64,000 bases of DNA from a virus. Lineage: Duplodnaviria > Heunggongvirae > Uroviricota > Caudoviricetes. Location of the stretch: IMG/VR virus record IMGVR_UViG_2839610755_000002. One strand, given 5' to 3'. Under the pieces are notes generated by a model. It saw only the letters and a list, made by a program, of their open reading frames with translations, did no database searches and had not been told where the DNA came from. Below, piece after piece: positions 459 through 59,562 of the stretch (position 1 is its first letter; every line of letters begins with the position of its first letter). The translations under genes were made by a program, and so were the position numbers.

Positions 459-3189
<2,731 letters not shown>

Positions 3190-3255: not shown

Positions 3256-4119
3256 ATGAACAAGCTATCTATGGGGGTGTTTCGCTGTTCAAGTGTCAGC
3301 GAAATATTGAAATACATTAGGGCAATAACATCTCACCGGGCGCCGATTAAATACGGCGTGGAAAAGGTGGAAGGCAAAAGCTATGACCGACTGCGCCGGG
3401 AGGCGAATCAGAAGGCGATAGATTTGCTTAATTCGCTGGTGGACGGCGCGACACTGACAGATGAACAGCGCCAGATCCTGGCTGGGTACACCGGTGAAGG
3501 TGGCATTGGCGGGGCCGTCTCCGAATATTACACACCAAAGCCGATCGCTGAAGGCGTCTGGGAGATCATGAAGCTCTACGGCGCGGACGTAGGTAACACT
3601 CTGGAACCATCGGCGGGAACCGGCGTTTTTAATGAGACAAAACCGGTTGGTACGGTGATGACCGCGACTGAGATCAGCAGTGTTTCCGGTCGTATAAACC
3701 AGTTGTTACACCCGGAAGACAGCGTACAGATTTCCCCGTTCGAACAGCTGGCTATAAGCACGCCTAACGATTCATTCGACCATGTTGTGGGTAACGTTCC
3801 GTTCGGCGGTCGTGATAACACACGCAACATCGATAAGCCTTACGCAGAAGAAACGGACATGGGTTCTTACTTCATGCTCCGCATGCTGGACAAGATAAAG
3901 CCTGGCGGATTCATGTGTGTGATTGTGCCGCCGTCCATTGTTTCAGGTTCAAACATGAAGCGGTTACGCCTGCGCCTATCCCGTAAAGCTGAATTTCTTG
4001 GCGCTCACCGCTTGCCTACCGGTACTTTTGACGCAAACGGGACCAGTACGGTCGTTGATGTGGTGCTGATGCGTAAACATCCGGCAGAGATGGCTGAGAA
4101 AATCCCCCCTGGTGGATGA
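3256..4119 (+). CDS. darB: DarB N-terminal segment (N6-adenine methyltransferase domain), ends at a frameshift
   Basis: MTase motif I-like LEPSAGTGVF and motif IV-like VVGNVPFGG. The ORF stops at 4117-4119 just after a C6 tract while the next frame continues. Confidence 0.75.
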   Translation: MNKLSMGVFRCSSVSEILKYIRAITSHRAPIKYGVEKVEGKSYDRLRREANQKAIDLLNSLVDGATLTDEQRQILAGYTGEGGIGGAVSEYYTPKPIAEGVWEIMKLYGADVGNTLEPSAGTGVFNETKPVGTVMTATEISSVSGRINQLLHPEDSVQISPFEQLAISTPNDSFDHVVGNVPFGGRDNTRNIDKPYAEETDMGSYFMLRMLDKIKPGGFMCVIVPPSIVSGSNMKRLRLRLSRKAEFLGAHRLPTGTFDANGTSTVVDVVLMRKHPAEMAEKIPPGG

Positions 4120-7100
4120 AGGCACTCTTGAATCGGCAAATGTGCTTTGGCCAACGTTTATTTCTGGCAAGTGGTTCGAAAAGGACGGCCGCCGGTTTGT
4201 TCATGGCACCCAGGAGAAGGGTTTCCAGGGGCGTATTGAGGTTCGTGCCGACGGGCAGATTGATAACCTGGCTCTTAAAGCGAAGCTGATTCATCGTTTC
4301 GAAAGTCGTATCGACTGGTCTTTGCTCGATATGGCTGAACCGTCACCGACCGCAGATGTTGTTGATGAAGGGGAAATGCGCCTGATTAATGGCGTATGGC
4401 AAAAATATGCTGGTGGTCGCTGGATTGAAGCTGATGCCGGGAAGGAGCTGAAGATTGATGTTGCCAGTTATGGCGCGGATAGCTGGGAGGCTCTTCAGCG
4501 TAACCTGACTACCACAGAAGGTCGTCTCGGCATGACATTTACCCAGATGGCAAATGTCCGCGATAAGTACACCACATCAATCAGCGACGATATGGTGCAG
4601 CTGGTGGACTGGATTAACAGCCAGCCTGAAAAATACCGTGAACGCTTGTATCGCGGGGCGATGATTGGCCGGATGTTAATTGAATATCAGGATATGAAGG
4701 CCGCCGGGCATAGTGCTGAACAAATCGAACAGCAGCGCCTTTCTCTGGTATCCCGTTTGCAGGCAGAGATTGACCGCTTTGGTAATCCTGGTCGCGGTCC
4801 TATAGCGAAATTGTCGGGGAGCGGTGCGCGCGCCTGGTTTGCTTTCCGTGGTGCGATTAAGCTGGATGGCACTATTTCTGACGAGCTGACAGGAAAGCTG
4901 GTTACGCATGATTCCAGCGCCAGTTATGACTCCACCAGCTATCAGGACATCCTGCGTTATCTCTATAGCGATCTTACCCGCGATCCAATCCAGCTCGATG
5001 ATTTCCGCCTTGCGTTTACCGGCGAACTGCCAGCCAGTGATAAAGAGTTGCTTAATTTATTGGCCAGCACCCCTGGTATTGCGGTTTCACCGTATGGCGG
5101 GATTGTTCCGTTCGCCCGCGCCACCAGCGGCGACATTAACGAGATAGTGGCTCCAAAACAGGAATTCCTCGCCACGCTCCCCGACGGTCCAGTAAAGAAC
5201 AACGTCCTTAATCAGCTGGCAGCGATCGAAGAGAAGCGCATCAAGACGCCAGCAGAGAATATCCGCTTTAAGCTCAATAGCCGTTGGTTCGACCGTTCCG
5301 TCATTCTGGAATTTTTGCAGGAAAACGGCTATCCGGATCTGCGCTATGTGCAGTCAGTGCAGCTGGAAGGCGACGAAATGGTTTCTGACACCTATCACGG
5401 TGGTGATGGTCTGTTCGTCGGACACCGATACGGTGTCGTCCAGCGCAAGGATAAAGAAACAGGCGAGATCCGCTACGAGTGGGACCGTAAATCAGGTGAA
5501 AACGCGACCGGGTTCCCGGCACAGCTGGAAAAGTATCTCAATGGTGCGCGTATCGGTGGCAAAGATAGCGCGACGGCGAACGGCTACCGCGAGCAGATGG
5601 CACTGCTTGAGGACCAGTTCAATAAGTGGCTCAAGACGCACGATCGCTACGATGAGCTGGTTGCCAAATACAACGATGTGTTCAATAGCAATATCCCGTA
5701 TGAACACTCTGGCGATCCGCTTGGGTTGAAGGGATTAAGCGGTAAGCGCCAGCCATTTGATTACCAGAATAGCGAGGTGCGCCGACTGTCCGAAGATGGG
5801 CGCGGCATCCTGGGCTTCGGCACCGGGCTGGGTAAAACGACGACCGCGCTGGCGCTTGAGGCGTTCAACTATGAGAACGGTCGCTCCACCCGTACTGCTT
5901 ATGTAGTGCCTAAAGCAGTGCTGGAAAACTGGTATTACGAAGCAAAAGAGTTCCTGAGTGAAGAGGCATTCAGTAACTACCTGTTCGTCGGTCTTGATGT
6001 GCTGATGGATGGCGATCAGATTCGCCAGGTGCCGGTGCTCGATGAGAACGGTAAACCTGTTCTTGGTACTGATGGCACTCCAGTTATGCGCGATGCTCTT
6101 AAGCTGGCAGATGAAGCCACTATCACGGCGCGGATGAACGCGATCCCGCACTCAAATTACCGTGCAGTCGTGTTTACCAAAGAACAATACGCCCGCATTC
6201 CGCTACGTGATGACACCGTAGATGAGCATGCACAAGACATGCTTTATGACTTCGTTGCTGCCGGGCGTGTGGCCAGCGCAATGGACTCCGATTCCCATCG
6301 CAAAGAGGCGGCGCGTCGCCGGGTATTGTCGGAGTATTCAGATACCGGTACCGAAAAAGCAGAGAAGTATCCGTACTTTGAGGATATGGGCTTCGACAGC
6401 GTGATTGCTGACGAAGGCCACAACTACCGCAATAGCTATAAAAATGGTCGCGAAGCGTCACAACTGGCCTATCTGCCCACCAGCGCGGTGGCGCAATCGG
6501 CGCGGGATATGGCAATCAAAAACGCGTACCTGATGAAAAAGAATGGTGGGCGCGGACCGGTTCTCCTGACTGCAACGCCAGTAGTTAACACCCCGATCGA
6601 TGCATACAACATGCTTTCTCATGTGCTGCCGAAGGAATACTGGCAGAAGATGGGGATCTACGGTCCTGATGACTTCGTTAAATTCTTCGGCAAGACCAGG
6701 CTGGAAACGGTACAGAAAATCAGCGGCGAAGTTGAAGAAAAAATGGCGCTGGTGGGTTTTGAAAACCTTGATGCGCTGCGCGGCATATTCCATCGCTGGA
6801 CAACGCTTAAAACGGCGGAAGACGTTAAGGATACCGTGGAGATCCCGGAACTGGACGAACACCAGCAGGATGCACCACTTACTGAAGAACAACTGGCGGC
6901 GTATGAAGAATTGCGTCAGCAGGCGGAAGCGGCAGCCAAAGCCAACAATGGCGTAACGACCTCGGTCAATGAAGACGGCGTGATTGAGCACGAGAAAGCC
7001 CGTCCGATCTTCTCAATAATCAGGGATATGGACCGCGTATGTACTGACATGGACCTGTACTATCGCCGGATCACCTATCGTTTCCTGCCGGAGTATGCCG

Positions 7101-10024
7101 ATGCGGTGCAGCAGCTGGCGGACAGTTTGCCTAAACAAGCCACCAGCGAAGACGACGACAGTGATGATTCAATCACGCAGCAATCGCAATACTCCCTGAT
7201 AGATAAGGGCGAGTTTATTCAGTTGCAGGTTCCGGAAGCGTTCGAGCAGGAAGTGAATAAGCGCCTGGCCAGGTTTGGCATTGACGAACAGACCGTAACT
7301 CACCCCGTTACGCCCAAATACGCGAAGCTGATTGCCACGCTGAAGGAGTTTTTCCCGGAAGGTAAGCAAATCATCTTCACCGATGAAAAAACGCAGCACC
7401 AGAAGCTCAAGCGCATTATCTGCAATGCTCTTAACCTTGAACCTTCAAAGGTGGGGATCCTGAATGCTCAGACGGTTGCCGAGGCAGGTAAAACCGGTCA
7501 GAAACTGAAAGCTGTTAAACCGCCGAAAGAGCTACCGGATGAACCAACAGATGCGCAGATAGCGAAATACAACGAGCAAATGGCTCGGTATGACGCCTAT
7601 ATCGCGCAGCAAAATGAAATGTCGTTGGGCGGTCTGGAAAAGATTGCAGCCGACTTCCAGGAGGGCCGGACTCCGATCATCATCTGCAACAAAAAGGCAG
7701 AGGTGGGTATCAACCTGCATCGAGGAACGACGGATATCCACCACCTGACGTTGCCGTGGACTCCAGCCAGCATCGCACAACGTAACGGTCGCGGTGCACG
7801 AGTTGGCTCCAACCGTGCAAGCGTTCGCGTTCACTACTACTGCGGCAAGGGGTCTTTCGATGAATACCGACTGAAGACGCTGAAGCGTAAAGCAGGCTGG
7901 ATCTCCGATATCCTCCGTTCAGATAAGTCAGAAATGGAGAACGCCGACGCCAATGACATGATCGAAATGCAGATGTATACCGCGAAGGATGACGGCGAAC
8001 GTCTGGCAATGATGCAGGTTCAAATGGATAAGGCGAAAGCTGCGAAACGCGCTCGCCAGAAAGAACAGGCTACTATCGACCTTCAGAACTACATCAAGGC
8101 GCAGCACGCAGCTGGTGAGGATGTGGAGGTACTTACCGCTGAATTGGAGCGAAGCAAAGCGGAACTTGAAAAGACCACCGCCGACGTCGCCAAATTCAAA
8201 CAGGCGGTAATGGCCAAAGCAGCTGATAACGCAGACTGGAAAGCCCGCTGGGGTAGCGTCCATCACACAGACCGTATGTTGTTAGCACAGTATCGCGCGT
8301 CGTTGAAAAGCGCCATTCAGCGCAAGGCTAATATCTCTCAGGCCATCTCCCGCTATGAGAAATTATTGAACCGTACTCAGAAGGCCGCGACGGATATCAA
8401 ACGCCTGCGCCCGCTGGTGGAGGATGCAATAAATAAAGGCATTCTGGATGTTGATCCTGATCTGGTTAACCATGCGAATGAGTTCCTTGTTATCGGCGAT
8501 CGCTCATGGCGTGTAGGCCAATACTATGATTGTGCCGGTGATATCGTTCGCATTAAGTCGCTGGACTTCGACAGCCAGCGCGCAGACGTGGAGATCATCT
8601 TTACCTTCAAAGGTACCAAATCGGGTAACTGGGATGTGAAGACGCTGGATAAACAGGTTGATGTAACTCCCGATGAAGATGCTGTTATGCAGAAAATCAG
8701 TGGTGGCGTCTCCATCGCCGGGATTAACGACATCATTTCCTGTGACGATTTCTACCGTTTCCAGCAGCGCGGCATGATCAAAATCACTGACTCATACGGC
8801 GTTCAGACTACAGAGTCAGGCTATAGCATTGATTTTGTTGGTACCTATACGTACCCACTGAAGCATGCGGTTTACCCGGATCGCCGTGACGGCGCGCTGA
8901 AGTCGTCAATTGCAAAATGGGTGCTTGGTATGATGTCGGAAGGGAATAACCGCCAGATCCGTTCGGCAGAAACATTCCTGGTTGAACTGTTTGGCTCCAA
9001 TTATGGCGATGTAATCGCGTCATACGGAGATACGCTATCCCCTGAAGCAATTCAGGAGAAAATAGCGGATGCGATCGCCAGAATGCCGGAAAAAACAAAC
9101 CAGGGGGCTACTCGTAACGGGGATTCTGAACTTGAGGTCACCAATGCTATTTTCGGTACCAATGAGTTCCGGGCGTCAGATTATGAGATCACCACAGCAC
9201 AGTTTGGCACCATTGGCATTTACAGCAATAAAGACGAGATCAAGCAGGCAATGGACGCAGCAAGCGCGCGCATTGCAGCAGAACGGAAAGCCAATCTGAA
9301 TCATGCAGTCGCCGCGCTGACTCAATCGTGGGTAACAGCAATCAGGGAGGCCGCCACCACAGGAAAAATCACACCGGCAATTGCGGATGTCGTAAACGAC
9401 GGCTCTAAATTTATGGATGCCTATAAAATGGATGCGATGAAGTTGCCATCAGCCTATGGTCAACTCAGCTATCGCATGACCTACAACCTGGTATCAATGT
9501 TTTCCGACCTTGCCATCCTTGGGCTGGTGGATCTTAACGAGGTTACGCCGGACTTGCTCAGCATGCGCAAGAATCATGTGGAGATATTGCAGAGAATTAA
9601 CACGGTTCTTGCCGGGCGCACCGATGAAGAGAAACAGGCCGACGCTGATCGGATAAACCTGGCCCTTGGCAACATCACGGAGGAAGAAATTGCCGCCAGA
9701 AACGAGAAACAAGAAGAGTTATCATCAATACAGGGTGATGCCACCAGCATAGCTCAGTCTCTTGGTCTGAATTATCGCGTATCCACTGCCGACCTGAAGA
9801 TGATGTACGCACCAAAATTCGCCGCTGGAGAGGTATTTGGGCTTCAGGAGGCGTCCGGCATGAAAGGCGTTCTTTTCCGTGCTAAAGACGCAATCAAGGA
9901 AAAATTCGGCGCTCGCTGGCTGCCAGCGAAGGCGAAGAACAGCGATTTCCCGGGTAACTGGTGGATTATCGAGACAAAACACAACGTGGCGGACGTTCTG
10001 GCCGTCATCCAACAATACGCATAA
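4112..10024 (+). CDS. darB: DarB C-terminal segment (helicase-like large protein)
   Basis: 1970-aa ORF overlapping the previous one by 8 nt in another frame. 287+1970 aa is about the recalled 2255-aa P1 DarB. Walker-like GFGTGLGKTT and DEGHN motifs. Confidence 0.75.
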   Translation: MDEGTLESANVLWPTFISGKWFEKDGRRFVHGTQEKGFQGRIEVRADGQIDNLALKAKLIHRFESRIDWSLLDMAEPSPTADVVDEGEMRLINGVWQKYAGGRWIEADAGKELKIDVASYGADSWEALQRNLTTTEGRLGMTFTQMANVRDKYTTSISDDMVQLVDWINSQPEKYRERLYRGAMIGRMLIEYQDMKAAGHSAEQIEQQRLSLVSRLQAEIDRFGNPGRGPIAKLSGSGARAWFAFRGAIKLDGTISDELTGKLVTHDSSASYDSTSYQDILRYLYSDLTRDPIQLDDFRLAFTGELPASDKELLNLLASTPGIAVSPYGGIVPFARATSGDINEIVAPKQEFLATLPDGPVKNNVLNQLAAIEEKRIKTPAENIRFKLNSRWFDRSVILEFLQENGYPDLRYVQSVQLEGDEMVSDTYHGGDGLFVGHRYGVVQRKDKETGEIRYEWDRKSGENATGFPAQLEKYLNGARIGGKDSATANGYREQMALLEDQFNKWLKTHDRYDELVAKYNDVFNSNIPYEHSGDPLGLKGLSGKRQPFDYQNSEVRRLSEDGRGILGFGTGLGKTTTALALEAFNYENGRSTRTAYVVPKAVLENWYYEAKEFLSEEAFSNYLFVGLDVLMDGDQIRQVPVLDENGKPVLGTDGTPVMRDALKLADEATITARMNAIPHSNYRAVVFTKEQYARIPLRDDTVDEHAQDMLYDFVAAGRVASAMDSDSHRKEAARRRVLSEYSDTGTEKAEKYPYFEDMGFDSVIADEGHNYRNSYKNGREASQLAYLPTSAVAQSARDMAIKNAYLMKKNGGRGPVLLTATPVVNTPIDAYNMLSHVLPKEYWQKMGIYGPDDFVKFFGKTRLETVQKISGEVEEKMALVGFENLDALRGIFHRWTTLKTAEDVKDTVEIPELDEHQQDAPLTEEQLAAYEELRQQAEAAAKANNGVTTSVNEDGVIEHEKARPIFSIIRDMDRVCTDMDLYYRRITYRFLPEYADAVQQLADSLPKQATSEDDDSDDSITQQSQYSLIDKGEFIQLQVPEAFEQEVNKRLARFGIDEQTVTHPVTPKYAKLIATLKEFFPEGKQIIFTDEKTQHQKLKRIICNALNLEPSKVGILNAQTVAEAGKTGQKLKAVKPPKELPDEPTDAQIAKYNEQMARYDAYIAQQNEMSLGGLEKIAADFQEGRTPIIICNKKAEVGINLHRGTTDIHHLTLPWTPASIAQRNGRGARVGSNRASVRVHYYCGKGSFDEYRLKTLKRKAGWISDILRSDKSEMENADANDMIEMQMYTAKDDGERLAMMQVQMDKAKAAKRARQKEQATIDLQNYIKAQHAAGEDVEVLTAELERSKAELEKTTADVAKFKQAVMAKAADNADWKARWGSVHHTDRMLLAQYRASLKSAIQRKANISQAISRYEKLLNRTQKAATDIKRLRPLVEDAINKGILDVDPDLVNHANEFLVIGDRSWRVGQYYDCAGDIVRIKSLDFDSQRADVEIIFTFKGTKSGNWDVKTLDKQVDVTPDEDAVMQKISGGVSIAGINDIISCDDFYRFQQRGMIKITDSYGVQTTESGYSIDFVGTYTYPLKHAVYPDRRDGALKSSIAKWVLGMMSEGNNRQIRSAETFLVELFGSNYGDVIASYGDTLSPEAIQEKIADAIARMPEKTNQGATRNGDSELEVTNAIFGTNEFRASDYEITTAQFGTIGIYSNKDEIKQAMDAASARIAAERKANLNHAVAALTQSWVTAIREAATTGKITPAIADVVNDGSKFMDAYKMDAMKLPSAYGQLSYRMTYNLVSMFSDLAILGLVDLNEVTPDLLSMRKNHVEILQRINTVLAGRTDEEKQADADRINLALGNITEEEIAARNEKQEELSSIQGDATSIAQSLGLNYRVSTADLKMMYAPKFAAGEVFGLQEASGMKGVLFRAKDAIKEKFGARWLPAKAKNSDFPGNWWIIETKHNVADVLAVIQQYA

Positions 10025-10057: not shown

Positions 10058-10498
10058 ATGGCCACACTATCTGATACAATAAAACCGAATAAAACATATC
10101 TTGAGGCGGTACTCCGTACAGCGTTGTTAGGAAAGACAGAAGACGAATACGTTGATTTCTTCCTGTCAGGGCTACGCGGGCGATTACTGAAAAATCCCCG
10201 CCTGTACCGCAGCTATGGCCCATACTGGCCGGAAATTAAAAAATTATTACTGGAGCGCGGTTATGGTAATTTGGGTCGTCTCGTTGACCGTGACGTTCGC
10301 AAAATTTACCGTTATGACCGCCCGGCGCTGACGCTCATAGCTGCGACGCTCTACAGCCAGGAGCGTTTTGATAACGGTCAGATATACTCAGCCTGGCATT
10401 TATTGCCAGTGCCTGAAGAAGTTGACGACCAGGACTATGAGTTTGAGTCTTACGATTTGGAAGTTGAAGCCTTAGCACAGGCTGGAGAGAAAACTTGA
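10058..10498 (+). CDS. Ulx-like hypothetical protein
   Basis: 146-aa ORF between darB and lxc, the position of P1 ulx (recalled). Confidence 0.45.
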   Translation: MATLSDTIKPNKTYLEAVLRTALLGKTEDEYVDFFLSGLRGRLLKNPRLYRSYGPYWPEIKKLLLERGYGNLGRLVDRDVRKIYRYDRPALTLIAATLYSQERFDNGQIYSAWHLLPVPEEVDDQDYEFESYDLEVEALAQAGEKT

Positions 10499-10743
10499 AA
10501 AAGCGATACTACACAGTAAAGCATGGGACGCTACGAGCATTACAAGAGTTTGCTGATAAGCATAACGTTGAGGTGCGCAGGGAAGGGGGAAGTAAAGCTC
10601 TGCGCATGTACCGTCCGGACGGGAAATGGCGTACGGTCGTCGATTTCAAAACTAACAGCGTTCCCCAGGGCGTCCGCGACCGGGCATTCGAAGAATGGGA
10701 GCAGATCATCATAGATAACGCATTGCTCCTGAATGCTGATTGA
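10495..10743 (+). CDS. lxc: Lxc-like small protein (C1 corepressor)
   Basis: 82-aa ORF overlapping the ulx stop by 4 nt; size and position as P1 lxc (recalled). Confidence 0.5.
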   Translation: MKKRYYTVKHGTLRALQEFADKHNVEVRREGGSKALRMYRPDGKWRTVVDFKTNSVPQGVRDRAFEEWEQIIIDNALLLNAD

Positions 10744-10804: not shown

Positions 10805-11755
10805 ATGAATGTTTTTATTGATACAAATCTATATTTAGAATTTTACAGGATGGGTAGAGATAAACTAGATGAGCTGGATAAAGTATTTGCCTTACATCAA
10901 TATGGTCGTTTAAAACTTTGGTTACCAGAGCTTTTAGTGAATGAGTTCTGGAGAAATCGTTCTAAAGTTCTCTCTGAAACCATAAAGGAAATAACAAAAG
11001 ATTATAAGCCCGCGCTTCCCCAGATTTTTAGGCAACATGAAAAGCATTCACAATTTAATGATAAGGTTATAGAAGCAGGTAGGTTAAAGAATGAAATTAT
11101 TACAGATATCCAGAAATTGTTTAAAGAGGAGGCTTTGGCTGCCGATATTGTAATTAAAAGGATTTTTGATGCAGCATCTAAAATAGAGGCTGATGATGAA
11201 ACAATAGATAAGGGGAAACTTCGATTTGATCTTGGAAACCCGCCAGGCAAAAATAAATCATATGGTGACGCAGTTAATTGGGAATGTTTGCTAAAAGCGA
11301 TACCAGACGGTGAGGATATATATATCATAACTGAAGATGGTGATTATAAAAGTGCCTTTATAAAGGATGATATGAATGAATATTTGAAGCATGAGTGGAA
11401 AAAAAAGAAAAATTCAGAACCACATATCTATTCCCGCTTATCAGAGTTTATAGGCGAGCACTTTCCTCAAGCTAGTAACTTGGTGGAAATGGAAGTTAAT
11501 CTCACTATAGATGAATTACGACACTCTGGCAGTTTTGCTACAACACATCGAGTTGTAGCAAAATTATTAAAGCTCACTCACTTTACACAAGAGCAAATCC
11601 TAAAAATAATTGATATTTATTTTGAAAATGATCAGGTTGGTTACATCAAAGATGATGATGATGTGAAACTTCTTGCCAGAAGACTAATATCATTAGGTGA
11701 CGAGGATAAAGATCCTGAAGGGATGCTGGAGACATTCCGTGTATTTATTGATTAG
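10805..11755 (+). CDS. PIN-like nuclease-domain protein with uncharacterised C-terminal domain; candidate stand-alone defence/abortive-infection gene
   Basis: 316-aa ORF in a visibly AT-rich cassette. N-terminus MNVFIDTN plus GDAVNWE and IITEDGDY give a PIN-like acidic pattern. Sits where P1 has res/mod. Confidence 0.6.
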   Translation: MNVFIDTNLYLEFYRMGRDKLDELDKVFALHQYGRLKLWLPELLVNEFWRNRSKVLSETIKEITKDYKPALPQIFRQHEKHSQFNDKVIEAGRLKNEIITDIQKLFKEEALAADIVIKRIFDAASKIEADDETIDKGKLRFDLGNPPGKNKSYGDAVNWECLLKAIPDGEDIYIITEDGDYKSAFIKDDMNEYLKHEWKKKKNSEPHIYSRLSEFIGEHFPQASNLVEMEVNLTIDELRHSGSFATTHRVVAKLLKLTHFTQEQILKIIDIYFENDQVGYIKDDDDVKLLARRLISLGDEDKDPEGMLETFRVFID

Positions 11756-11761
11756 TATAAT

Positions 11762-11780
11762 GGGCGCATAGTTAGCGCCC
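11762..11780. terminator. stem-loop GGGCGC-atagtta-GCGCCC between convergent genes
   Basis: Perfect 6-bp GC stem directly after the PIN-like gene stop and the mat-like gene end. Confidence 0.4.
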
Positions 11781-11787
11781 AATAAGT

Positions 11788-12429
11788 TTAAAGATAATTA
11801 TCTTTACCAGTTAATGAACCTTTAGGCACTTTCCGCGCGGCAATTTCATGAGTAGCTTGAATTATATTCACTAGGGGACTTAGTAACGACGTATCCTGAT
11901 TGGCCTCAACTTCTCCAGCCATTGCCCTGATGTAGTCGGCGCTGGCAACGTTGTTGTATTCCGTCGCAAAGCAACATAGTAACGTCAGAACATGTTCTGT
12001 CGTTATTTCGCTCCAGTTGATGTTGAAAAATTCATCGCCTTTTTTATCGTGTTCGGAATCGAAGATGCTTTTGTGAAGGATGTATTTGCCGGATTCCTTG
12101 CGCGGTAACTTGATTGCTTTCTGGCGTTCCAGCTCCTTATAAATCTGCATTGCCTCAATTAGTACCGGCCTGCTGTTCATGAAGGGATCGCGCAACCTTA
12201 CACGCTGGCCAACTCGACCAGTAATAAAGCTGTTTTCCTCTTCCACCAGCACGATAAAACCCTTTTCCTCTTTTTCTCGCAATTCGCGCAGCAGCTGGAG
12301 TTCCATATCGCGGCGGCGTTCAGGGTAGCTGGTCCGCTCAGCCATTATCAGCTCGTTATTGATCCATGCAGCAGTCATTGACGCCGGTTTGCCGACGCTC
12401 ATCGAAACAACGCATATTTTCTTATCCAT
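11788..12429 (-). CDS. Mat-like protein (position of P1 mat)
   Basis: Track ORF 11788..12576; start moved to internal ATG (MDKKICVV) preceded by AGGGGG. Confidence 0.4.
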   Translation of the reverse strand: MDKKICVVSMSVGKPASMTAAWINNELIMAERTSYPERRRDMELQLLRELREKEEKGFIVLVEEENSFITGRVGQRVRLRDPFMNSRPVLIEAMQIYKELERQKAIKLPRKESGKYILHKSIFDSEHDKKGDEFFNINWSEITTEHVLTLLCCFATEYNNVASADYIRAMAGEVEANQDTSLLSPLVNIIQATHEIAARKVPKGSLTGKDNYL

Positions 12430-12618
12430 AGCGCCCCCTACAAAAAAGAAAAGCCACCAGCGGCGGCTTAGCAATACAACTGAAGGTAGCGCCCGGTACT
12501 CAGACTGTGCCGTCCATGGAATATTTGAAAAGGGATCCATCCGTACCGGGCGTGTGATGATTCTGACTGAAGTCACTTGTCAGTTGTCAATCATTTATCA
12601 TTAAAAATAATATATTTA

Positions 12619-13179
12619 TTAGTGCATGATGTTTGCCATCTCATAGGCGTCAGCCAGTAACTCCATCTCTGACTTGTTCAGCAGGGTGAATTCTTTCTTG
12701 CCTCCAACCACACCATCGGCATGAACAGGGACCAGCCAGGGGTATTTTGCTCTTACTTCAGCCGGTGCTGCATGCTGGTGGTGCCATCTACAAAGTGGCA
12801 ATTGCTTTTTATGACAACCCGGCGCGGTACGACCGGCGATATGGTGCAGAGACACCTCATTAGATATTACTCCATGCATATAGCAGGCAATGCAGGGGAG
12901 AGCGCCAAGAGCATTGGCGATGCGCCGTTCCTCCGCCGTTGGTGTTCTCCCCTTCAAGCCACGAGATTTTATTTTTACCGCGCTTTTCCGCGTTTTGCTA
13001 GCTGGTGGGCGCTCTTTCTGTTTAGCGATACGGCGGTCGATAGTATCCCGCATTTTCTGATATTGAAATTCTCGCCAGACCGGATCAGCCAACTTCTCCC
13101 GTTGCCGAGCGATCGCTCGTTCTCTGGCTGCCTTCTGCCACTTGCGGCACTGTTCAATTTTTTGTTCGATTGTTTTCAT
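12619..13179 (-). CDS. ref: Ref, HNH-type recombination enhancement endonuclease
   Basis: 186 aa with Cys/His-rich HNH-like core (CIACYMH...HH...CRWHH); size and position match P1 Ref (recalled). Confidence 0.8.
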   Translation of the reverse strand: MKTIEQKIEQCRKWQKAARERAIARQREKLADPVWREFQYQKMRDTIDRRIAKQKERPPASKTRKSAVKIKSRGLKGRTPTAEERRIANALGALPCIACYMHGVISNEVSLHHIAGRTAPGCHKKQLPLCRWHHQHAAPAEVRAKYPWLVPVHADGVVGGKKEFTLLNKSEMELLADAYEMANIMH

Positions 13180-13278
13180 ATGGTCAAAAAAAAGGCGGCC
13201 TAATGGCCGCCAATGATGTCAAGGAGTGAAGTAATGGCAACGTCTTCGTAGTTGACAAAAACTGCGGCTCAATTATAT

Positions 13279-13295
13279 CAATTAATTAGAGCAAT
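13279..13295. promoter_or_regulatory. C1 operator-like site upstream of ref
   Basis: ATTAATTAGAGCAAT matches the reverse complement of the recalled C1 operator consensus ATTGCTCTAATAAATTT. Confidence 0.55.
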
Positions 13296-13426
13296 GATAG
13301 ATATTTTATTTATCGTGAGTCACATTTTTTCACTTCAGTATCTGTCTGCTATACTCCTTCTTGATTGATTGGATGCGGAATACAAACCCGCTCTTTTGTG
13401 CAGCCTGGCTCCTTGCCAGGCTTTTT

Positions 13427-13738
13427 TTATTTCATCATGGAAGCTGTTAATGCTTTGGACCTTGCTGAACTGATTGAAAGGACATTGTTAACCTTACCCA
13501 AGAGTTCGCCAAACTCAGACATCACTTTAGCAAAACCTCGCCGTGCTTCTTCCTCGGTAGCATTCATCACGAAATGTTCAGCACTACGCATACTTTTGAC
13601 AGGAAACGCAACGGATATTGAGTCAATATCAGGCATTCTATCGCTCAGCTTTACAGTGACAATGACGGCTGGCGACTGAATATTAGTGCTTACAGACAGC
13701 ACTACATATTTTCCGTCGATGTTGAAATCCTTTCTCAT
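13427..13738 (-). CDS. Cra-like small protein
   Basis: ORF immediately downstream of cre, preceded by GGTGG; position of P1 cra (recalled). Confidence 0.4.
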   Translation of the reverse strand: MRKDFNIDGKYVVLSVSTNIQSPAVIVTVKLSDRMPDIDSISVAFPVKSMRSAEHFVMNATEEEARRGFAKVMSEFGELLGKVNNVLSISSARSKALTASMMK

Positions 13739-13754
13739 ATGCCACCATAAATAT

Positions 13755-13771
13755 CAAATAATTAGAGCAAT
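13755..13771. promoter_or_regulatory. C1 operator-like site between cre and cra
   Basis: Core ATTAGAGCAAT present with flanking mismatches. Confidence 0.45.
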
Positions 13772-13788
13772 TTATTATACATTGACGG

Positions 13789-14820
13789 CTAATCACCATC
13801 TTCCAGCAGGCGCACCATTGCCCCCGTTTCACTATCCAGATTACGGATATAGTTCATGACAATATTTACGTTGGTCCAGCCACCAGCTTGCATGATCTCC
13901 GGTATTGAAACTCCGGCGCGGGCCATATCTCGCGCGGCTCCGACACGGGCACTGTGTCCAGACCAGGCCAGGTACCTCTGACCAGAGTCATCCTTAGCCC
14001 CGTAAATCAATCGGTGAGTTGCTTCAAAAATCCCTTCCAGGGCGCGAGTTGATAGCTGGCTGGTGGATGATGGCGAGGCAACACCATTTTTTCTGACCCG
14101 GCAAAACAAGTAGTTATTCGGATCATCAGCCACACCAGAGACAGAAATCCATCGCTCGACCAGTTTAGTTACCCCCAGGCTAAGTGCCTTCTCTACACCT
14201 GCGGTGCTAACCAGCGTTTTCGTTCTGCCAATATGGATTAACATTCTCCCACCGTCAGTACGTGAGATATCTTTAACCCTGATCCTGGCAATTTCGGCTA
14301 TACGTAACAGGGTGTTATAAGCAATCCCCAGAAATGCCAGATTACGTATATCCTGGCAGCGATCGCTATTTTCCATGAGTGAACGAACCTGGTCGAAATC
14401 AGTGCGTTCGAACGCTAGTGCCTGTTTTGCACGTTCACCGGCATCAACGTTTTCTTTTCGGATCCGCCGCATGACCAGTGAAACAGCGTTGCTGTCACTT
14501 GGTCGTGGCAGCCCGGACCGCCGATGAAGCATGTTTAGCTGGCCCAAATGTTGCTGGATAGTTTTTACTGCCAGACCGCGCGCCTGAAGATATAGAAGAT
14601 AATCGCGAACATCTTCAGGTTCTGCGGGAAACCATTTCCGGTTATTCAACTTGCACCAAGCCGCCCATGACCGGCAAACGGACAGAAGCATTTTCCAGGT
14701 ATGCTCAGAAAACGCCTGGCGATCCCTGAACATATCCATCAGGTTCTTGCGAACCTCATCACTCGTTGCCTCGACCGGCAATGCAGGCAAATTTTGGTGT
14801 ACGGTCAGTAAATTGGACAT
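13789..14820 (-). CDS. cre: Cre tyrosine recombinase
   Basis: 343 aa, MSNLLTVHQNLPALP...MVRLLEDGD; near-identical to the canonical Cre sequence from memory, with a few substitutions. Confidence 0.97.
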   Translation of the reverse strand: MSNLLTVHQNLPALPVEATSDEVRKNLMDMFRDRQAFSEHTWKMLLSVCRSWAAWCKLNNRKWFPAEPEDVRDYLLYLQARGLAVKTIQQHLGQLNMLHRRSGLPRPSDSNAVSLVMRRIRKENVDAGERAKQALAFERTDFDQVRSLMENSDRCQDIRNLAFLGIAYNTLLRIAEIARIRVKDISRTDGGRMLIHIGRTKTLVSTAGVEKALSLGVTKLVERWISVSGVADDPNNYLFCRVRKNGVASPSSTSQLSTRALEGIFEATHRLIYGAKDDSGQRYLAWSGHSARVGAARDMARAGVSIPEIMQAGGWTNVNIVMNYIRNLDSETGAMVRLLEDGD

Positions 14821-15229
14821 TTGACACTCAGATAATGGTTTTAAGTAAAGTGTACAGGATCGGCTCTGCCTTTACCTGTTTATGATTCTCGTCATAGAAA
14901 CGCCAACGACCGCGACTGCGTTCTATCTTTTCTTCACCGCGCGATAATGACAGTTGACAACTATCACGATCAAACCCTTTTGCCCGCCAGTAACCACGAT
15001 TTTTCTCAAGCTCAAGATGAGTGGACCTTTAGCAGCTGAATATCCCATTTTTCACCTCTGATTGATTGGTGGTGCTAAGTGCGCTACGCGAAATCTGGAG
15101 CACTAACACTGCCAACATTTCGCAGATTTTACGTAGCGCAACCTTGATCAAATGATCACTATTTGACCTGATAAGGTATTGAACTGTATGGATTTACAGG
15201 TAAATTAATCATGTTCAATAACCCTTAAG

Positions 15230-16848: not shown

Positions 16849-17966
16849 TTATTCAGCTGCCACCGGTTTTAACAAGCCAGCATCGAGCAGTTTACGCGTC
16901 AACCACTGCTGGCCTTTACCCGTTAATTGAGGCGTCAACCGTATCTGGTAGCCATCTTCATCATCCAGCACCACTTCTTTCACCGTGAAATACCCCGCGT
17001 TGATGTACTGCTGGAACGGCACATTTTTACGTCCACCGGACGCTATCAGGATGCCGTTCTCCCGTAACCAGACAAACAGCGCGTTTTGCTTAAGTCCAAC
17101 AACCTTTGCAAAATTCCCAATCAGGATCCCTTTAGCTACTGATACCCGGTCGGCAAAATCGACTTTAGGAGCGGCGGCCACCAGCTGCTGATTTAGCTGG
17201 TGGGCTTTCTGTTCCAGAAGTTGCTTTTGTTCAGCCAGTTCGGCAGCCAGGCGTAGGGCTTCAGGAAGCGTCTGGGGGATTGCGATCGGTTGCTGTTCTT
17301 TTTGTCGGAAGTAGCTGTCTTCCAGTTTTTCAAAGAATGCCCATGCCTGATCGGTTTCGAGCATTTTAGCGTGGCGGGCTGCGCCGCGTTCTGTCCAGAG
17401 GGGAGTGAGCGAACATTGCGAGCAATTTTTACAGAGTAGTTTAAAGCTACTCTGTGCTTCAACTCGCGCAATGATTCTCCTTCAACTTTGAAAAAGTGCT
17501 TCCCTTCAACAAAGCGTACTTTGTTCTCATGATGATTTTGGCGAATACGGATTGTTTCTGTCCCATACCCTCTAGCAAGAGTCTCGGTTGTCACTACACG
17601 CACTCCCTGCCATTCCAGAACGGGAATTTCATCAGACTGATTCTGAACAACCACCAGCTCCGATTCCTGAACTGAAGGTGCATGAATTTTTTCTGATTTA
17701 ACGTTAGTTGCTTTCATTCTGTGTGCCTCCTTGCGTGCTTCGGCTGCGACGGTTGCGTAATTCAGATGACCCTGTTCGAGCAGGTATTCGCGGATATCAG
17801 ACAACAGGATACGGTGAACCGCGTTCTTGTCCTTTCTCCGGTAAAGTTGTTTGGTGATCATGAAGTAGTTGGCAATAACGCCTGGTATATCCCTGGTACT
17901 GATACAGGCAGTGTGCTGTTCAATTGCCTCGATCATCTCTTCACGGGTGACTAATGACGTTCTCAT
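16849..17966 (-). pseudogene. antirepressor-like gene, copy A (shared N-terminus, ORF6N/Rha-like middle, KilAC-like C-terminus), split across two frames
   Basis: Track ORFs 17193..17966 and 16849..17364 overlap in different frames. C-terminal part has the KilAC-like motif NVPFQQYINAGYF; first 77 aa are near-identical to the 45268..46302 protein. Confidence 0.5.
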
Positions 17967-18184: not shown

Positions 18185-18502
18185 ATTGGCAGCCTCCTTA
18201 GACGTTGGTATGTAACCACCGCAGAAGAGACCAATCTTGCTGGCGGTGGACTGTACGGAGTTGGCCTTACTGGCGTCCAAGGTAACCAGCCTACCCGAAG
18301 GTAGCCCCATACAGCCCACCATTGTAGAGGTGTGCGTGTACGCCGATACAAAAAAAGACGCGAGCGGCGTCTGTATCGCCTTAGACTTAAGCGGGAGGCC
18401 AATCCCGGCACCCGTTTTAATGAGGTGCCTGATAAGCATAAACCGAAAATGCCTCAAGGCGCAAGAGGTCAGGTTCAATGTAACATCGGTAGCTAAAAAA
18501 CA

Positions 18503-18519
18503 CAATTTATTAGAGCAAA
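18503..18519. promoter_or_regulatory. C1 operator-like site upstream of icd/ant-like module A
   Basis: CAATTTATTAGAGCAAA, 15/17 match in reverse orientation. Confidence 0.55.
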
Positions 18520-18522
18520 TAT

Positions 18523-20007
18523 TCATTCATTAAGCCATGCCAGAGCTTCATCAACCTGCGCTTCGTCTTCGACGCTAAGCACTTCATCCTGGGGAACATA
18601 ATCAGCCAGCATAGCGAAACAATATGTATCCCAATGGTCTGGTGAGTGCAGGTTGAGTTTTTTCTTCATATCCTCCTTACTCATCACTTTCCATTGACCT
18701 GCGGAGTTAATCCCTACAGGGATTTTCGACGCTTCCTCAATAGTTTCATTACCCTTATCCAGTCTCATACGACCAGATTTTACGGCCTCTGCGGCTTGAA
18801 CGTTGGCATAAGCACGTTTATCAAAGTACAGGCTCTTATCTTCACGGCTATGCATCTTTTTACCCCAGCGTATACGCTGTACGGTAATACCATAATACTC
18901 GTACATCAGATCCGCCGTTGCTTTACCCAGGCCATCGCCGTCTATCGCTATGGTGATATTTGGGAATCGCTCAGGATTACATTCTGCGAAAATTTTGGCG
19001 GCAAGCTGCGTTTCTGTAACGTCTGTGTATTCCAGCATTCGATAGTTGATTACACGGCGTTTATTTCGCTGGCCGGACACCATCATGATATTGATAACGG
19101 ACTTATCCCGTCCCGTACCACCAGCAACGTCCACACATGCAAGCCAGCCCCATCCTTTTGCAATCTTGACTTTCCGCCGCGTTGCACGTTCAACCTCATC
19201 ACGTCCAAGAAGGAAGCCATCCTGTGATTTAGGGAATAGGCCGCGTACCTTAATCATGTACATAGGGTTATCGCGCCCGCCGTACTCCGCCAGCTTCATT
19301 TTGATAAATGCTGGCGTTACCAGCGGTGATTCCTCACTGTTAAGCGTGATCGCCGTATAAACGCCATCAGGGTTACCAGGACGCTTGGCCAGTTTATGGT
19401 GAGTATCGTAGAAATAGCCGCTTGGGCGTGTAGGCTGTGACAGTAATAAGATGCGGTTATCCTGTCCGGTAAGAGCACCGGTGATGATACCGAAAGCTCT
19501 ATCACTGACACCGGAGGCTTCATCGATAATATACAGAAGATGATCTGCGTGTTCACCGGCGAGAGCTTCTTCACTTCCCAGACGAAAGCCCTTCGGTACT
19601 ACAGTCCATACACCTTTACCAGTAACCTCATAGAAAGCGGTTTCTGTCAGAACAAAATAATCAGCAAGCCATGGGAAACGGCTGGTGGCAGTAGCCCAGT
19701 TTATCTTGATGTACTTGAATATACCGGTCATTACCTGCTGAATTTTGTTCGCAACGATAATGGCTCGGGCACCGGGATACATGATTATGAACAACATGAT
19801 CATGATAGAAGTCATGTCTGATTTCCCGGTACCGTGACCAGACGAAACAGATGTCTTGCTACCCTGTTCCTGCACAGACTCAATAATCAGATCCTGCTGC
19901 CAGGTAGGTGTTTTGCCGAACAAAACATCAGCGGCCGCAATCCAGTCATAACGATATAGCGCCACCAGCTCGCGCCAACGTGGATCCGTTACGCAACTTC
20001 TGGCCAT
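18523..20007 (-). CDS. pacB: terminase large subunit PacB
   Basis: 494 aa with a Walker A-like [10 protein letters not shown]; adjacent to pacA. Confidence 0.8.
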
Positions 20008-28062: not shown

Positions 28063-29279
28063 TTCGCCCCCTTCGGAGGTTCTGGCAACGGCATCCAGAA
28101 CAAGACGTTCCCTAACCACGATAAAGTGCCGTCGCTCAACTCCACGTATTCCCCTTGCACCTGTCCTGCCATATACTCGCCGTGCTTTGAATAAATTAAA
28201 ATCCAATCATCTTGAGGGGGCATTCGCTCACTACAGCTTATCCAACCATCCTGAGTTACCGGAAGCGAGAACGGCAGCACATCTCTGTGAACAAGTTTTT
28301 GCTGTGACAGGTTATCCAGAACTTTCTGTACTGCTGCATCACCGAATACACCAAGCGCATCTGCCATAACTCCTACAACCTGATAAGCCTCAGCGCATAC
28401 CGTGGATAAACCATCCTGAGTTACCGGAGAGTTGCCGTGTTCTTTAATGTGCAAGCGAGGTTCACCATCTTTTGGCTCAGGCCACTGGCGCTCCATGTTG
28501 ATCTTCAATTTATCTTCCATAGCAGCGGTAATTTCAGCATCGCTGATGCCAGCACGGCGCTGTGCATCCCACAACAGAAACTGCATATCAGCCCACTCGC
28601 TAAGATCGTCTGGTTCGGCTGCGGCTTCCAGTGCCTCTTTTGAGAGATGTTTCAGCGGGCCAACTGGACCAACACAGCCAAACGTCTTATCTGACCATTC
28701 AGCATGGCGCTGCCGGATTAAATTGCGCAATTGAAGCGATGATCCGTTCTCCTCTGACAACTCTTCATGATTACTTGCAGGTTCGACACCCTGAAGCATA
28801 TCCGCGCGGCAGGCGTTAAGCGCGTTTTGCACGCGTTTAGCGTTCTGTACTTCGTATTTAGGTGCGGCTGCCAATGCCCATAGCCAACCAATTTCATAGC
28901 TATCAGCTTTTGATAGAGCACATTCCATTTCCAGTGTTATTTTCTTAGGTACGAGTTGCCAATCATCTGGCACTACTGGCGCTGGCGGGGCGGTGTAAAG
29001 CGGTGTTATTTCTACCCGAAAATCACCGACTTTATGCAGTCGCCCCCACCGTTCGGCTTCTGCTTTGTCAGAATACATAGCGGTGAACGTATTATATTCA
29101 TGGTCAATTTGCGTGAAGGTTGCCTTCCACGCCACTGGCTCTGCTTCCAGCGATGCCAGCGCGATACGAAACACATTGGCAAGCAGGCTGTCTGAAGATT
29201 GGTTATCGTGCGCCGCATCGCTCAGAAAGCCAGTGATGAATGATTTAATCTCTGCGCTTTCTCTGGTAATAGTTGCCAT
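28059..29279 (-). CDS. DUF550/DUF551-like protein (MazG-like dNTP pyrophosphohydrolase-type, phage-associated)
   Basis: Start MATITRESAE with AAGGAAA upstream; C-terminal WISCSERMPP...VLFWMPLPEPPK resembles the DUF551 signature (recalled). Confidence 0.45.
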   Translation of the reverse strand: MATITRESAEIKSFITGFLSDAAHDNQSSDSLLANVFRIALASLEAEPVAWKATFTQIDHEYNTFTAMYSDKAEAERWGRLHKVGDFRVEITPLYTAPPAPVVPDDWQLVPKKITLEMECALSKADSYEIGWLWALAAAPKYEVQNAKRVQNALNACRADMLQGVEPASNHEELSEENGSSLQLRNLIRQRHAEWSDKTFGCVGPVGPLKHLSKEALEAAAEPDDLSEWADMQFLLWDAQRRAGISDAEITAAMEDKLKINMERQWPEPKDGEPRLHIKEHGNSPVTQDGLSTVCAEAYQVVGVMADALGVFGDAAVQKVLDNLSQQKLVHRDVLPFSLPVTQDGWISCSERMPPQDDWILIYSKHGEYMAGQVQGEYVELSDGTLSWLGNVLFWMPLPEPPKGAK

Positions 29280-32379: not shown

Positions 32380-32844
32380 TTATTCCTGAATGCGCTTAAA
32401 CTCGATTACCCACACCAAGGGATTAGCGTTCCAGCTTTCTTCACCATAGATGGATTCCCACAGGCGCTGGAACGCAACCTTGGCCATTGCGAAATCCCCC
32501 TTGGGAGTAAGGAATGTTCCCGGGTGATCAGGAAGCAAACTCCCAGCAGGCGGAACGCCCTCAGCCCTTGCATCGCATTCGCTGATATCGTTCAACCGTT
32601 CAACGCGCACGTTGGTAATTTCCAACAGAATGCGTGATGCCCATCGCGGCATGTGAATTGATGGACGCCACCCACCATCAAACTTTTCATTCACAGTGTG
32701 AGGTTTCCAGTCGGCATCATCGGGTATCGACCATAAGCCGTAATCACCAGGTTTTTGCTCGCAACTGGCCCGATAAATCCTTGCTGCGTTCTTCTCATCG
32801 CCACGACAAAGGTTGTCGTTCCAGTACACTGCAACCATCCTCAT
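32380..32844 (-). CDS. hypothetical protein
   Basis: 154-aa ORF overlapping the 3' end of 32795..33100 in another frame. Confidence 0.3.
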   Translation of the reverse strand: MRMVAVYWNDNLCRGDEKNAARIYRASCEQKPGDYGLWSIPDDADWKPHTVNEKFDGGWRPSIHMPRWASRILLEITNVRVERLNDISECDARAEGVPPAGSLLPDHPGTFLTPKGDFAMAKVAFQRLWESIYGEESWNANPLVWVIEFKRIQE

Positions 32845-33100
32845 TGCCTAATATCGCCAACGCTTCACGGACCCATATGCGATCACCAACGTTACCGAAC
32901 GGGCATAAACCATGTTCAGGTGCATCCATAACGTGGGTATAGACACCATTGCGTTTCTTTGTCGGTTTACGGATAACCAGGCAGTTATCGGCCCTGACAT
33001 TTTTTACAGGTCGGCGAGTCTGCGTCTTCCTTCCTTCAAGGATGGCCCGGACCATCTCATCGTTGAAAATCATGCCGCGCTCTTTCACTTCGCCTTTCAT
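32795..33100 (-). CDS. hypothetical protein
   Basis: 101-aa ORF; first gene downstream of the operator-like site at 33279. Confidence 0.3.
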   Translation of the reverse strand: MKGEVKERGMIFNDEMVRAILEGRKTQTRRPVKNVRADNCLVIRKPTKKRNGVYTHVMDAPEHGLCPFGNVGDRIWVREALAILGNEDGCSVLERQPLSWR

Positions 33101-58154: not shown

Positions 58155-58196
58155 TGAACCGCCCCGGGTTTCCTGGAGAGTGTTTTATCTGTGAAC

Positions 58197-59410: not shown

Positions 59411-59562
59411 CCTGTTTACCTCTTTCTCAGGGAGTTTAGTCTCCAGGATTTCCGGGGCGGTTCAGGCTGTTAAGGAACGTGATAAGTCAATAATGGATCT
59501 TAACCAGACCATTGAGACGATGAACAAAGCAGAGCAACATTTTCACAGCCAGGAAGTGAAAA

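Follow-up and report, generated by a model that had tools for sequence, protein, structure and literature searches.

The darB gene of the P1-like element analyzed here is broken by a genuine one-base insertion, in which a run of five cytosines (C5) has become a run of six (C6), and the altered allele is inherited on a single haplotype. The most probable explanation (a rough probability of 0.86) is that this insertion arose once and has been transmitted ever since with the loss of the function of the gene, which makes the locus an ordinary pseudogene. The analysis was based on a window of 64,000 nucleotides from a tailed virus (IMG/VR record IMGVR_UViG_2839610755_000002), and all the positions given below refer to this window, that is, the whole stretch of DNA that was analyzed.

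Anatomy of the broken reading frame

An earlier note on this DNA had described a darB-like gene split into a methyltransferase portion at 3256..4119 and a second portion at 4112..10024, and the coordinates recovered here are the same. The features of the locus and its neighbors are as follows:

1471..3180, minus strand: prt (portal), in the P1 gene order
3256..10024, plus strand: the darB pseudogene over its full extent, 6769 nt (P1 and the intact alleles have 6768 nt)
3256..4119, plus strand: upstream darB ORF of 287 aa, with the capsid-targeting N-terminus and the N6-adenine methyltransferase core, ending in ...AEKIPPGG (stop)
4067..4069, plus strand: TGA that closes the downstream frame at its 5' side and bounds the interval of the frame switch
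4104..4109, plus strand: the CCCCCC homopolymer (C6), the mutation itself, with C5 in the intact alleles and one additional C here
4112..10024, plus strand: downstream darB ORF of 1970 aa from GTG 4112, with SNF2/ResIII/Helicase_C modules and no capsid-targeting N-terminus
4117..4119, plus strand: premature TGA that ends the upstream frame (codons GCT GAG AAA ATC CCC CCT GGT GGA TGA)
10058..10498, plus strand: ulx, an intact Dar-system partner gene of 146 aa, in the P1 gene order
10495..10743: lxc, in the P1 gene order

The frame switch is confined to positions 4070..4116, because the TGA at 4067-4069 closes the downstream frame on its upstream side. The C6 tract is the sole run of five or more identical bases in this interval, so the earlier description of CCCCCC as the only homopolymer holds for runs of this length, but not for shorter ones, given the AAAA present at 4099-4102. 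The alignment with the intact alleles contains one frame-changing difference, the change from C5 to C6, which is seen as GAGAAAATCCCCCTGGTG in P1 and pET6.1-IncY, and as GAGAAAATCCCCCCTGGTG in the window. As the earlier note had predicted, a 1-nt indel at this tract is sufficient to fuse the two frames, and the removal of one C produces a frame of 2255 aa, the length of P1 DarB, without an internal stop; the wild-type peptide across the frameshift junction is ...AEKIPLVDEGTL... The repaired translation is identical to P1 DarB (YP_006479.1) at 2223 of its 2255 residues (98.6%), while the DNA differs from P1 darB by 146 substitutions in 6768 nt, an identity of 97.8%. Chance is not at issue here, because the 1-nt indel sits in a gene that is otherwise 97.8% identical to P1 darB.

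A single uninterrupted darB frame, encoding a product of approximately 250 kDa, is absent from the window, where it is broken at the C6 tract and stopped at 4117-4119. The upstream ORF adds three out-of-frame residues (PGG) before its TGA. No Shine-Dalgarno-like sequence was found upstream of GTG 4112, the nominal start of the downstream ORF, and gene callers place its start at ATG 4532, for a product of 1830 aa; the internal ATGs with Shine-Dalgarno-like sequences in this frame are found at 4376 and 4532. The locus is darB by descent, but a pseudogene as it stands.

The domains of the protein are distributed on the two sides of the break. The upstream ORF has Pfam matches to N6_Mtase (residues 90-282) and Eco57I (residues 160-244), and its residues 86-267 align to the catalytic core of EcoKI HsdM, including motif I (EPSAGTG) and motif IV (NVPFGG). 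This core ends at approximately residue 282-290, and the break falls just past it. The downstream ORF matches the SNF2-rel_dom, ResIII, and Helicase_C domains, which means that the methylase-helicase dyad is present in the darB of the window, but with its two domains in different frames. The N-terminal 30 residues, which are identical to those of P1 DarB at all 30 positions, correspond to the capsid-targeting signal of the protein, and are sufficient for targeting (PMC9024508). The published facts on DarB that underlie this account are drawn from PMC9024508, PMC12810830, PMC11109961, and PMC5512222.

The order prt, darB, ulx, and lxc in the window matches that of the P1 record, with darB divergent from prt/pro. 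The hdf, darA, ddrA, and ddrB genes, whose position lies upstream of the window, are intact ORFs in the sibling plasmid pF1273-3. The record of this sibling also contains several other flagged pseudogenes, and the window itself contains two IS629-type elements, with the insertion of one of them having truncated a gene for a tail protein.

Distribution and ancestry of the C6 allele

The tract was surveyed in 5,426 complete E. coli genomes, using queries of 42-45 nt for each length (C4, C5, C6, and C7), with every 28-nt seed forced across the tract. Among the 439 genomes that were scorable, the tract was C5 in 428, C6 in eight, C4 in three, and C7 in none. Two of the three C4 records have further lesions in darB, with ECO12 being annotated as "frameshifted; internal stop", and UID2309220007 presenting a second 1-nt gap. 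None of the 19 phage records contains C6, and all 19 are in frame.

The identical C6 allele, over the same 401-nt stretch, is found in eight complete E. coli plasmids of O157:H7, O111:H8, O103:H2, and other strains, which were sequenced by different laboratories in different countries and years, and all of which are annotated as "frameshifted" by RefSeq. These carriers, listed as "N-6 DNA methylase, frameshifted", are pF1273-3, pTX376-2, p94_0962-2, the 2012C-4227 plasmid, three O111:H8 plasmids, and pO103_CEC12044_1. The tract was also C6 at all ten of the loci fetched from draft assemblies, such as GCA_020356665.1, and the exact 287-aa truncated product occurs in 1927 index blocks and on no fewer than 1000 contigs. 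By contrast, the intact C5 copy of the exact O111-type allele (P0031) was found on two contigs, and may be either an ancestor or a revertant; the intact protein, which matches the repaired O111-type allele exactly, has the accessions EFU4944104.1, EJL1131788.1, and EPF8042450.1. A search of the literature for reports of this darB frameshift returned nothing specific. The break already carries a pseudogene annotation in RefSeq, and represents ordinary gene decay.

The C6 allele is tied to one ancestral background. A 5' haplotype block, extending from 3256 to about 4254, is common to all 18 of the C6 carriers sampled, with a single variable site, and differs from four non-C6 alleles by seven single-base differences (six synonymous and one nonsynonymous). 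Among complete genomes or plasmids, the closest C5 allele reaches only 98.5% identity over the 401 nt. Downstream of the block, the carriers are mosaic; each has between 0 and 103 differences from the window, most of them synonymous and none creating a new stop, a pattern that is consistent with recombination with functional alleles. Over darB as a whole, pF1273-3 and pTX376-2 are identical to the window, p94_0962-2 has one substitution, the O111 plasmids have 16, and the O103 plasmid has 71. The plasmid pF1273-3, identical to the plasmid of the window in darB, is separated from it elsewhere by four SNPs and by two additional IS insertions in the window.

Relaxed selection was sought in the substitutions of the C6 lineage, where the differences are too few to show decay; either a recent lesion or recombination with intact copies of the gene would account for this pattern. 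In most carriers, the downstream frame remains open over its full 5.9 kb, and the window and 14 of the 17 carrier loci that were fetched show no further stop or indel in it. This openness fits a young pseudogene or one refreshed by recombination, but a frame that is still in use would look the same. The other three of the 17 loci have a 2000-nt deletion inside darB, and no microhomology was found at its ends.

Origin, consequences, and alternative readings

The favored course of events begins with the gain of one C in darB, presumably by replication slippage at a short homopolymer, which would have happened once, in a P1-like plasmid prophage. Inheritance, and recombination between plasmids, would then have carried the C6 allele through Shiga-toxin-type E. 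coli, in O157:H7, O111:H8, O103:H2, and other strains. A protein begun at the normal start ends after 287 residues; it retains the capsid signal and methyltransferase core, and lacks everything farther downstream, including the SNF2-type helicase. The 1970-codon frame is left without a good ribosome-binding site at its 5' end, and any product initiated internally would have no N-terminal signal to load it into the phage head. A full-length, virion-delivered DarB is not expected, because the break parts the N-terminal capsid signal from the SNF2 helicase. Phage P1 without darB is sensitive to EcoB and EcoK (PMC9024508, PMC11109961), and the DarB-dependent protection against type I restriction of the EcoK/EcoB type would probably be lost here, because DarB is a virion-delivered protein that acts on the injected DNA. 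The loss of darB may be tolerated because the elements persist chiefly as plasmids, and because decay is under way in others of their genes. Of the interpretations put forward in the earlier note, an inactivating mutation in an anti-restriction gene is thus the one that the evidence supports, with the loss of function being expected from the anatomy of the break.

The same anatomy leaves some room for a milder interpretation, in which C6 would be a leaky or reversible form of darB, with the 287-aa product being packaged and injected as a stand-alone enzyme, or as a filler that alters the contents of the head, complemented by rare slippage or reversion, and tolerated or favored in the plasmid-borne P1-like elements of STEC. 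Because the break is located at a domain boundary, the 287-aa fragment, with its capsid signal and complete methyltransferase core, could perhaps fold and enter the head; +1 slippage at CCC-C might yield a trace of full-length DarB, and rare reversion from C6 to C5 may occur, as one C6-type allele also exists in a small number of intact C5 copies. Taken as a whole, this interpretation is considered decidedly unlikely.

Another reading, in which both parts of the split gene are functional, the 287-aa product and a helicase fragment with a start of its own, whether jointly or independently, so that C6 would be a variant rather than a null allele, is very unlikely. It draws on the position of the break at the C-terminal edge of the methyltransferase core, rather than within it, on the retention of the N-terminal 30 residues that suffice for capsid targeting, on the open downstream frame with its internal ATGs at 4376 and 4532, and on how common the C6 allele is. 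The helicase fragment has no capsid signal, however, which means that the two parts could not be delivered together, and the fusion of the methyltransferase with SNF2 is described as a nearly invariant dyad in the family of DarB (PMC5512222). The three carriers that lost 2000 nt of the downstream part indicate that selection does not maintain it, other genes of the prophage are also in decay, and the abundance of the allele is explained by the heavy sequencing of clonal STEC lineages.

Recoding, whereby a +1 ribosomal shift at CCC-C or slippage of the RNA polymerase still yields a useful amount of full-length DarB, is just as improbable. A C6 tract is short for transcriptional slippage. For ribosomal shifting, the site AUC CCC CCU contains the known slippery motif CC[C/U]-[C/U], the shift needed is +1, and a slip of the P-site tRNA-Pro from the CCC at 4105-4107 to that at 4106-4108 would produce exactly the wild-type ...IPLVDE... 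In E. coli, CCC-C is reported to support up to 1% of +1 frameshifting, a value measured at the second codon, which is described as the most shift-prone position (PMC4519876), but the slippery site of darB is codon 284. The 25 nt upstream contain no Shine-Dalgarno-like stimulator, and the 0-frame codon that follows is CCU, an ordinary codon rather than a stop. Shifting at 1% or less would provide fewer than one DarB per virion, against the approximately 40 copies that are packaged (PMC9024508). The frameshifted layout is not conserved either, given that 428 of the 439 scorable genomes and all the phage records are in frame.

The C-tract might also be a contingency repeat, with frequent slippage turning darB on and off; this is the phase variation raised in the earlier note, and its probability is, once again, very low. 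Three tract lengths (C4, C5, and C6) do exist in the population, and the intact C5 copy of the O111-type allele on two contigs could be a revertant. In known contingency loci, phase variation is driven by mononucleotide runs of about 7-8 nt or more, whereas the darB tract is short: it has 5 nt in most of the scorable genomes and 6 nt in the window, and the survey detected no longer tract. The C6 state is invariant in the 18 carriers sampled, it occurs on a single haplotype, C7 was never seen, and the contigs with the truncated product outnumber those with the exact intact counterpart by at least 1000 to two. A G5 run at 3273 in darB, used as a control, was G4 in five and G6 in none of about 296 genomes, and the 1-nt variants of the C-tract (three C4 and eight C6, the latter a single lineage, among 439) do not exceed this level. 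The C-tract is not especially unstable, because the control has a similar share of 1-nt variants.

The last alternative, a sequencing or assembly error in a tract that is truly C5, is the least probable of all and was rejected. Homopolymer indels are the typical error of long-read assemblies, and some 1-nt variants at short darB runs do look like such errors (as in the two C4 records with further lesions), but the identical C6 in eight complete genomes from different groups, countries, and years, its recurrence in every draft locus fetched and on the contigs with the exact truncated protein, and its strict linkage to one SNP haplotype, which random errors would not show, effectively refute it at the population level.

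Significance and comparison with known systems

The genuine and inherited insertion has little significance beyond annotation, for which the ORFs at 3256..4119 and 4112..10024 should be treated as one darB pseudogene, with a real frameshift that should not be corrected. The C6 tract is characteristic of a widespread P1-like plasmid lineage in Shiga-toxin-type E. coli, and the allele, together with its 5' haplotype, could be used as a simple marker to recognize this lineage. Phage particles, if they are still made, should lack the DarB protection against restriction of the EcoK/EcoB type, which could slightly narrow the range of transfer.

The closest known system is the DarB of P1 itself (P1_gp011, YP_006479.1), a methyltransferase-helicase of 2255 aa, and an internal head protein of the Dar system, with which the locus in the window shares its position between prt and ulx, its repaired length, and its architecture. 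The P1 gene is intact, whereas the frame in the window is broken after codon 285, leaving a fragment of 287 aa and an orphan frame of 1970 codons. Phase-variable contingency loci likewise have a frameshift at a mononucleotide run whose length varies in the population, but darB C6 differs from them in its tract of only 5-6 nt, its stable state within the lineage, its single origin, and its lack of excess variation. Compared with a +1 site of the prfB type, darB has the slippery P-site codon (4105-4108), but not the slow A-site codon, the Shine-Dalgarno stimulator, or the conservation. The "frameshifted N-6 DNA methylase" pseudogenes of RefSeq, on the other hand, are the same C6 allele, with nothing different at the locus, and the pattern as a whole is that of the homopolymer-slippage pseudogenes of decaying prophages and plasmids, in which the gain of one base is followed by clonal inheritance and later deletion, with IS elements elsewhere, and from which nothing sets darB C6 apart.

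Anatomy of the break in darB

The split of darB is real and correctly located, and a reading of 3950-4250, together with the ORF listing, bore out all of the coordinates proposed in an earlier note. The run CCCCCC occupies 4104-4109. Given that one TGA closes the downstream frame on its 5' side and another ends the upstream frame, the switch is confined to 4070-4116. The earlier note considered the C-run to be the only homopolymer in this interval, which holds for runs of at least five bases, but not for shorter ones, as AAAA is found at 4099-4102.

Features of the darB region
1471..3180, minus strand, prt
3256..10024, darB
3256..4119, plus strand, upstream ORF, ATG start, 287 aa, C-terminus …AEKIPPGG, stop TGA 4117-4119
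4067-4069, TGA closing the downstream frame
4112..10024, downstream ORF, +1 frame relative to the upstream ORF, 1970 aa
10058..10498, ulx
10495..10743, lxc

The 401 nt around the tract are 95-97.5% identical to P1, P7, and other P1-like phages, and mostly 95-99% identical to several hundred P1-like plasmids of E. coli, Salmonella, and Klebsiella. The P1 reference counterpart is darB (P1_gp011, 6768 nt, 2255 aa), flanked by prt/pro and ulx/lxc. The comparison with other P1-like alleles, as the earlier note had advised, located the lesion precisely: the alignment with P1 and pET6.1-IncY (a plasmid with an intact gene) is gapped in a single column, at the tract, which reads GAGAAAATCCCCCTGGTG in the intact C5 alleles and GAGAAAATCCCCCCTGGTG in the C6 allele of the window, and darB spans 6769 nt in the window versus 6768 nt in both of the others, so the lesion is the gain of one C in a C5 run. 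Translation after the removal of one C yields 2255 aa with no internal stops, and 2223 of the 2255 residues are identical to P1 DarB. The gene contains 18 homopolymers of at least five bases, of which the mutated tract is the sole C-run. This tract leads directly into CCTGGTGG (4108-4115), which agrees with the Chi sequence GCTGGTGG at seven of eight positions; P1 darB reportedly has 11 Chi sites (PMC11109961).

Distribution and origin of the C6 allele

In a survey of 5,426 complete E. coli genomes, 459 of which have the tract-containing part of darB, exact copies of the window's 401 nt, including C6, were recovered from eight: the O157:H7 plasmids pF1273-3 and pTX376-2, three O111:H8 plasmids, one O103:H2 plasmid from Japan, and the plasmids of strains 2012C-4227 and 94_0962. 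A 44-nt query, with each 28-nt seed forced across the C6 tract, returned the same eight complete genomes and no others. The pseudogene status is already known, as RefSeq labels the gene "N-6 DNA methylase, frameshifted" in all eight. In the public assembly collection, 1927 index blocks and at least 1000 contigs have the exact 287-aa truncated product, and C6 is present in all ten of the draft-assembly loci fetched.

In an alignment of 18 C6 carriers and four alleles lacking C6, the 5' part of darB, between the start codon and about 4254, had a single variable site among the carriers and seven single-base differences (six synonymous) from the other four, with C6 strictly linked to this SNP haplotype. 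Among the C5 alleles of the plasmid and genome collections, the closest match to the 401 nt reaches only 98.5% identity. Beyond about 4255, the carriers are mosaic and differ from the window by 0-103 substitutions, of which most are synonymous, and no new stop codons were found in this part of the gene; the genes flanking darB also vary. The simplest reading of these alignments is that C6 would have arisen once, followed by the recombination usual among P1-like plasmids. The C6 allele is a homopolymer frameshift of an ordinary kind, with a single origin and stable inheritance, and it makes darB a pseudogene.

The earlier note also raised slippage-prone phase variation, on which the tract lengths, counted by tract-specific queries, have a direct bearing.

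Lengths of the darB C-tract and a control G-run
C-tract at 4104: C5, 428 genomes; C6, 8; C4, 3; C7, 0
Control G-run at 3273: G5, 291 genomes; G4, 5; G6, 0

Set against the G4 and G6 counts of the control, the C4 and C6 counts show that the C-tract does not exceed the background of one-nucleotide variants that short G/C runs have in this survey, and the C6 length is invariant wherever sampled. G4, at the run equivalent to 3273-3277, was observed in unrelated complete genomes (database matches H126-H130). The C4 records (loci L024, L025, and L026) are from unrelated hosts and countries, and two of the three have further lesions in darB, which suggests that these two represent long-read homopolymer errors, although the C4 of one of them, ECO12, may be real, given that its product is found on three contigs. 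A small opening for phase variation is left by P0031, an intact 2255-aa DarB protein identical to the C5-repaired O111-type version of the C6 allele (EFU4944104.1, EJL1131788.1, and EPF8042450.1; two contigs), which has either persisted from the ancestor or arisen by reversion. The repaired O157-type version was absent from the same collection.

The frameshift might also be bypassed during translation, a process that is possible but unlikely to matter. A +1 shift is required, and a slippery motif, CC[C/U]-[C/U], is present within the site AUC CCC CCU, where +1 slippage of the tRNA-Pro would restore the exact wild-type sequence. The frequency reported for such frameshifting, up to 1%, applies to the second codon, where shifts are most likely (PMC4519876), whereas the darB site is codon 284, the next codon is ordinary, and no upstream stimulator was found at this site. 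At 1% or less of about 40 copies per virion, slippage would provide less than one DarB molecule per head.

The sequencing or assembly error envisaged in the earlier note is excluded for practical purposes by the eight complete genomes, the truncated product on at least 1000 contigs, the ten drafts, and the haplotype linkage.

Signs of decay in the element

The window is a sibling of the E. coli O157:H7 plasmid pF1273-3, but is distinct from it, with four SNPs and two extra IS copies, and is otherwise 99.99% identical. A tail-protein gene that lies immediately 5' of a baseplate gene has lost its 3' end to the IS copy at 41407-42716. The RefSeq record of pF1273-3 lists additional pseudogenes that map to the window, and at 11470-14216 of this record (outside the window), a structural-region gene labelled "bleomycin hydrolase" is interrupted by an IS3-family element.

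Insertions in the window, and pF1273-3 pseudogenes mapped to it
About 41407-42716 and 58154-59463, opposite orientations, identical 1.31-kb IS3-family elements with IS629-type ends (TGAACCGCCCCGG), both missing from pF1273-3
40741..41409, truncated tail-protein gene (PHROG 1906, profile 1-225 of 245)
14828-15048, frameshifted "creatininase"
16849-17966, frameshifted KilAC antirepressor
18209-18526, partial ash-family gene
28214-28799, partial dATP/dGTP pyrophosphohydrolase-domain gene
32380-33100, frameshifted hypothetical gene

Three C6 carriers (2012C-4227 and draft loci L020 and L022) share an exact 2000-nt deletion in the downstream part of darB, equivalent to 7976-9975, with no microhomology found at the junction; the first two otherwise match the window's darB, and L022 differs at 38 positions. 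None of 19 records in the phage collection has C6. This pattern of decay fits an element living mainly as a plasmid, in which selection on darB may be weak, since an anti-restriction protein would matter only when a new host is infected.

Predicted consequences for DarB and comparison with known systems

DarB, an internal head protein of ~250 kDa, is loaded last of the Dar components, with each virion containing about 40 copies, and its N-terminal 30 residues suffice for capsid targeting (PMC9024508). These 30 residues are identical in the repaired protein and P1. The deletion of darB renders P1 sensitive to EcoB and EcoK (PMC11109961; PMC12810830), and the methylase-SNF2 fusion has been described as an almost invariant dyad (PMC5512222). 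The Pfam matches of the upstream ORF are N6_Mtase (residues 90-282) and Eco57I, and those of the downstream ORF are SNF2-related, ResIII, and Helicase_C. The catalytic core of EcoKI HsdM aligns with the DarB N-terminus from motif I (EPSAGTG) through motif IV (NVPFGG), reaching "RLPTGTF..G..T.V" at residue 267, and the N6_Mtase match on the repaired protein ends at residue 290, which places the break, at residue 285, where the methyltransferase core comes to its C-terminal end. What remains in the 287-aa product is the targeting signal and the catalytic core, and all else is lost. No Shine-Dalgarno-like sequence was found 5' of the GTG at 4112, where the downstream frame starts, and any product of this frame would lack the targeting signal. 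Of the three alternatives offered in the earlier note, the evidence favours an inactivating mutation, and DarB function has presumably been lost in the C6 allele. The other Dar genes (hdf, darA, ddrA, ddrB, and ulx) are intact ORFs. The remaining curiosities are limited to the position of the break, which coincides with a domain boundary, the slippery nature of CCC-C, and the existence of one C6-type allele in a few intact copies.

The slot 3' of lxc (10805-12540) appears to house variable cargo or defence genes: it contains a SIR2-family protein, an AraC-type regulator, or a DUF2971 protein in other C6 carriers, and a YaaC-family protein in pET6.1-IncY. The order prt, darB, ulx, lxc is the same in the window and P1; this slot houses res/mod (type III R-M) in P1, and a PIN-domain protein and a hypothetical gene in the window.
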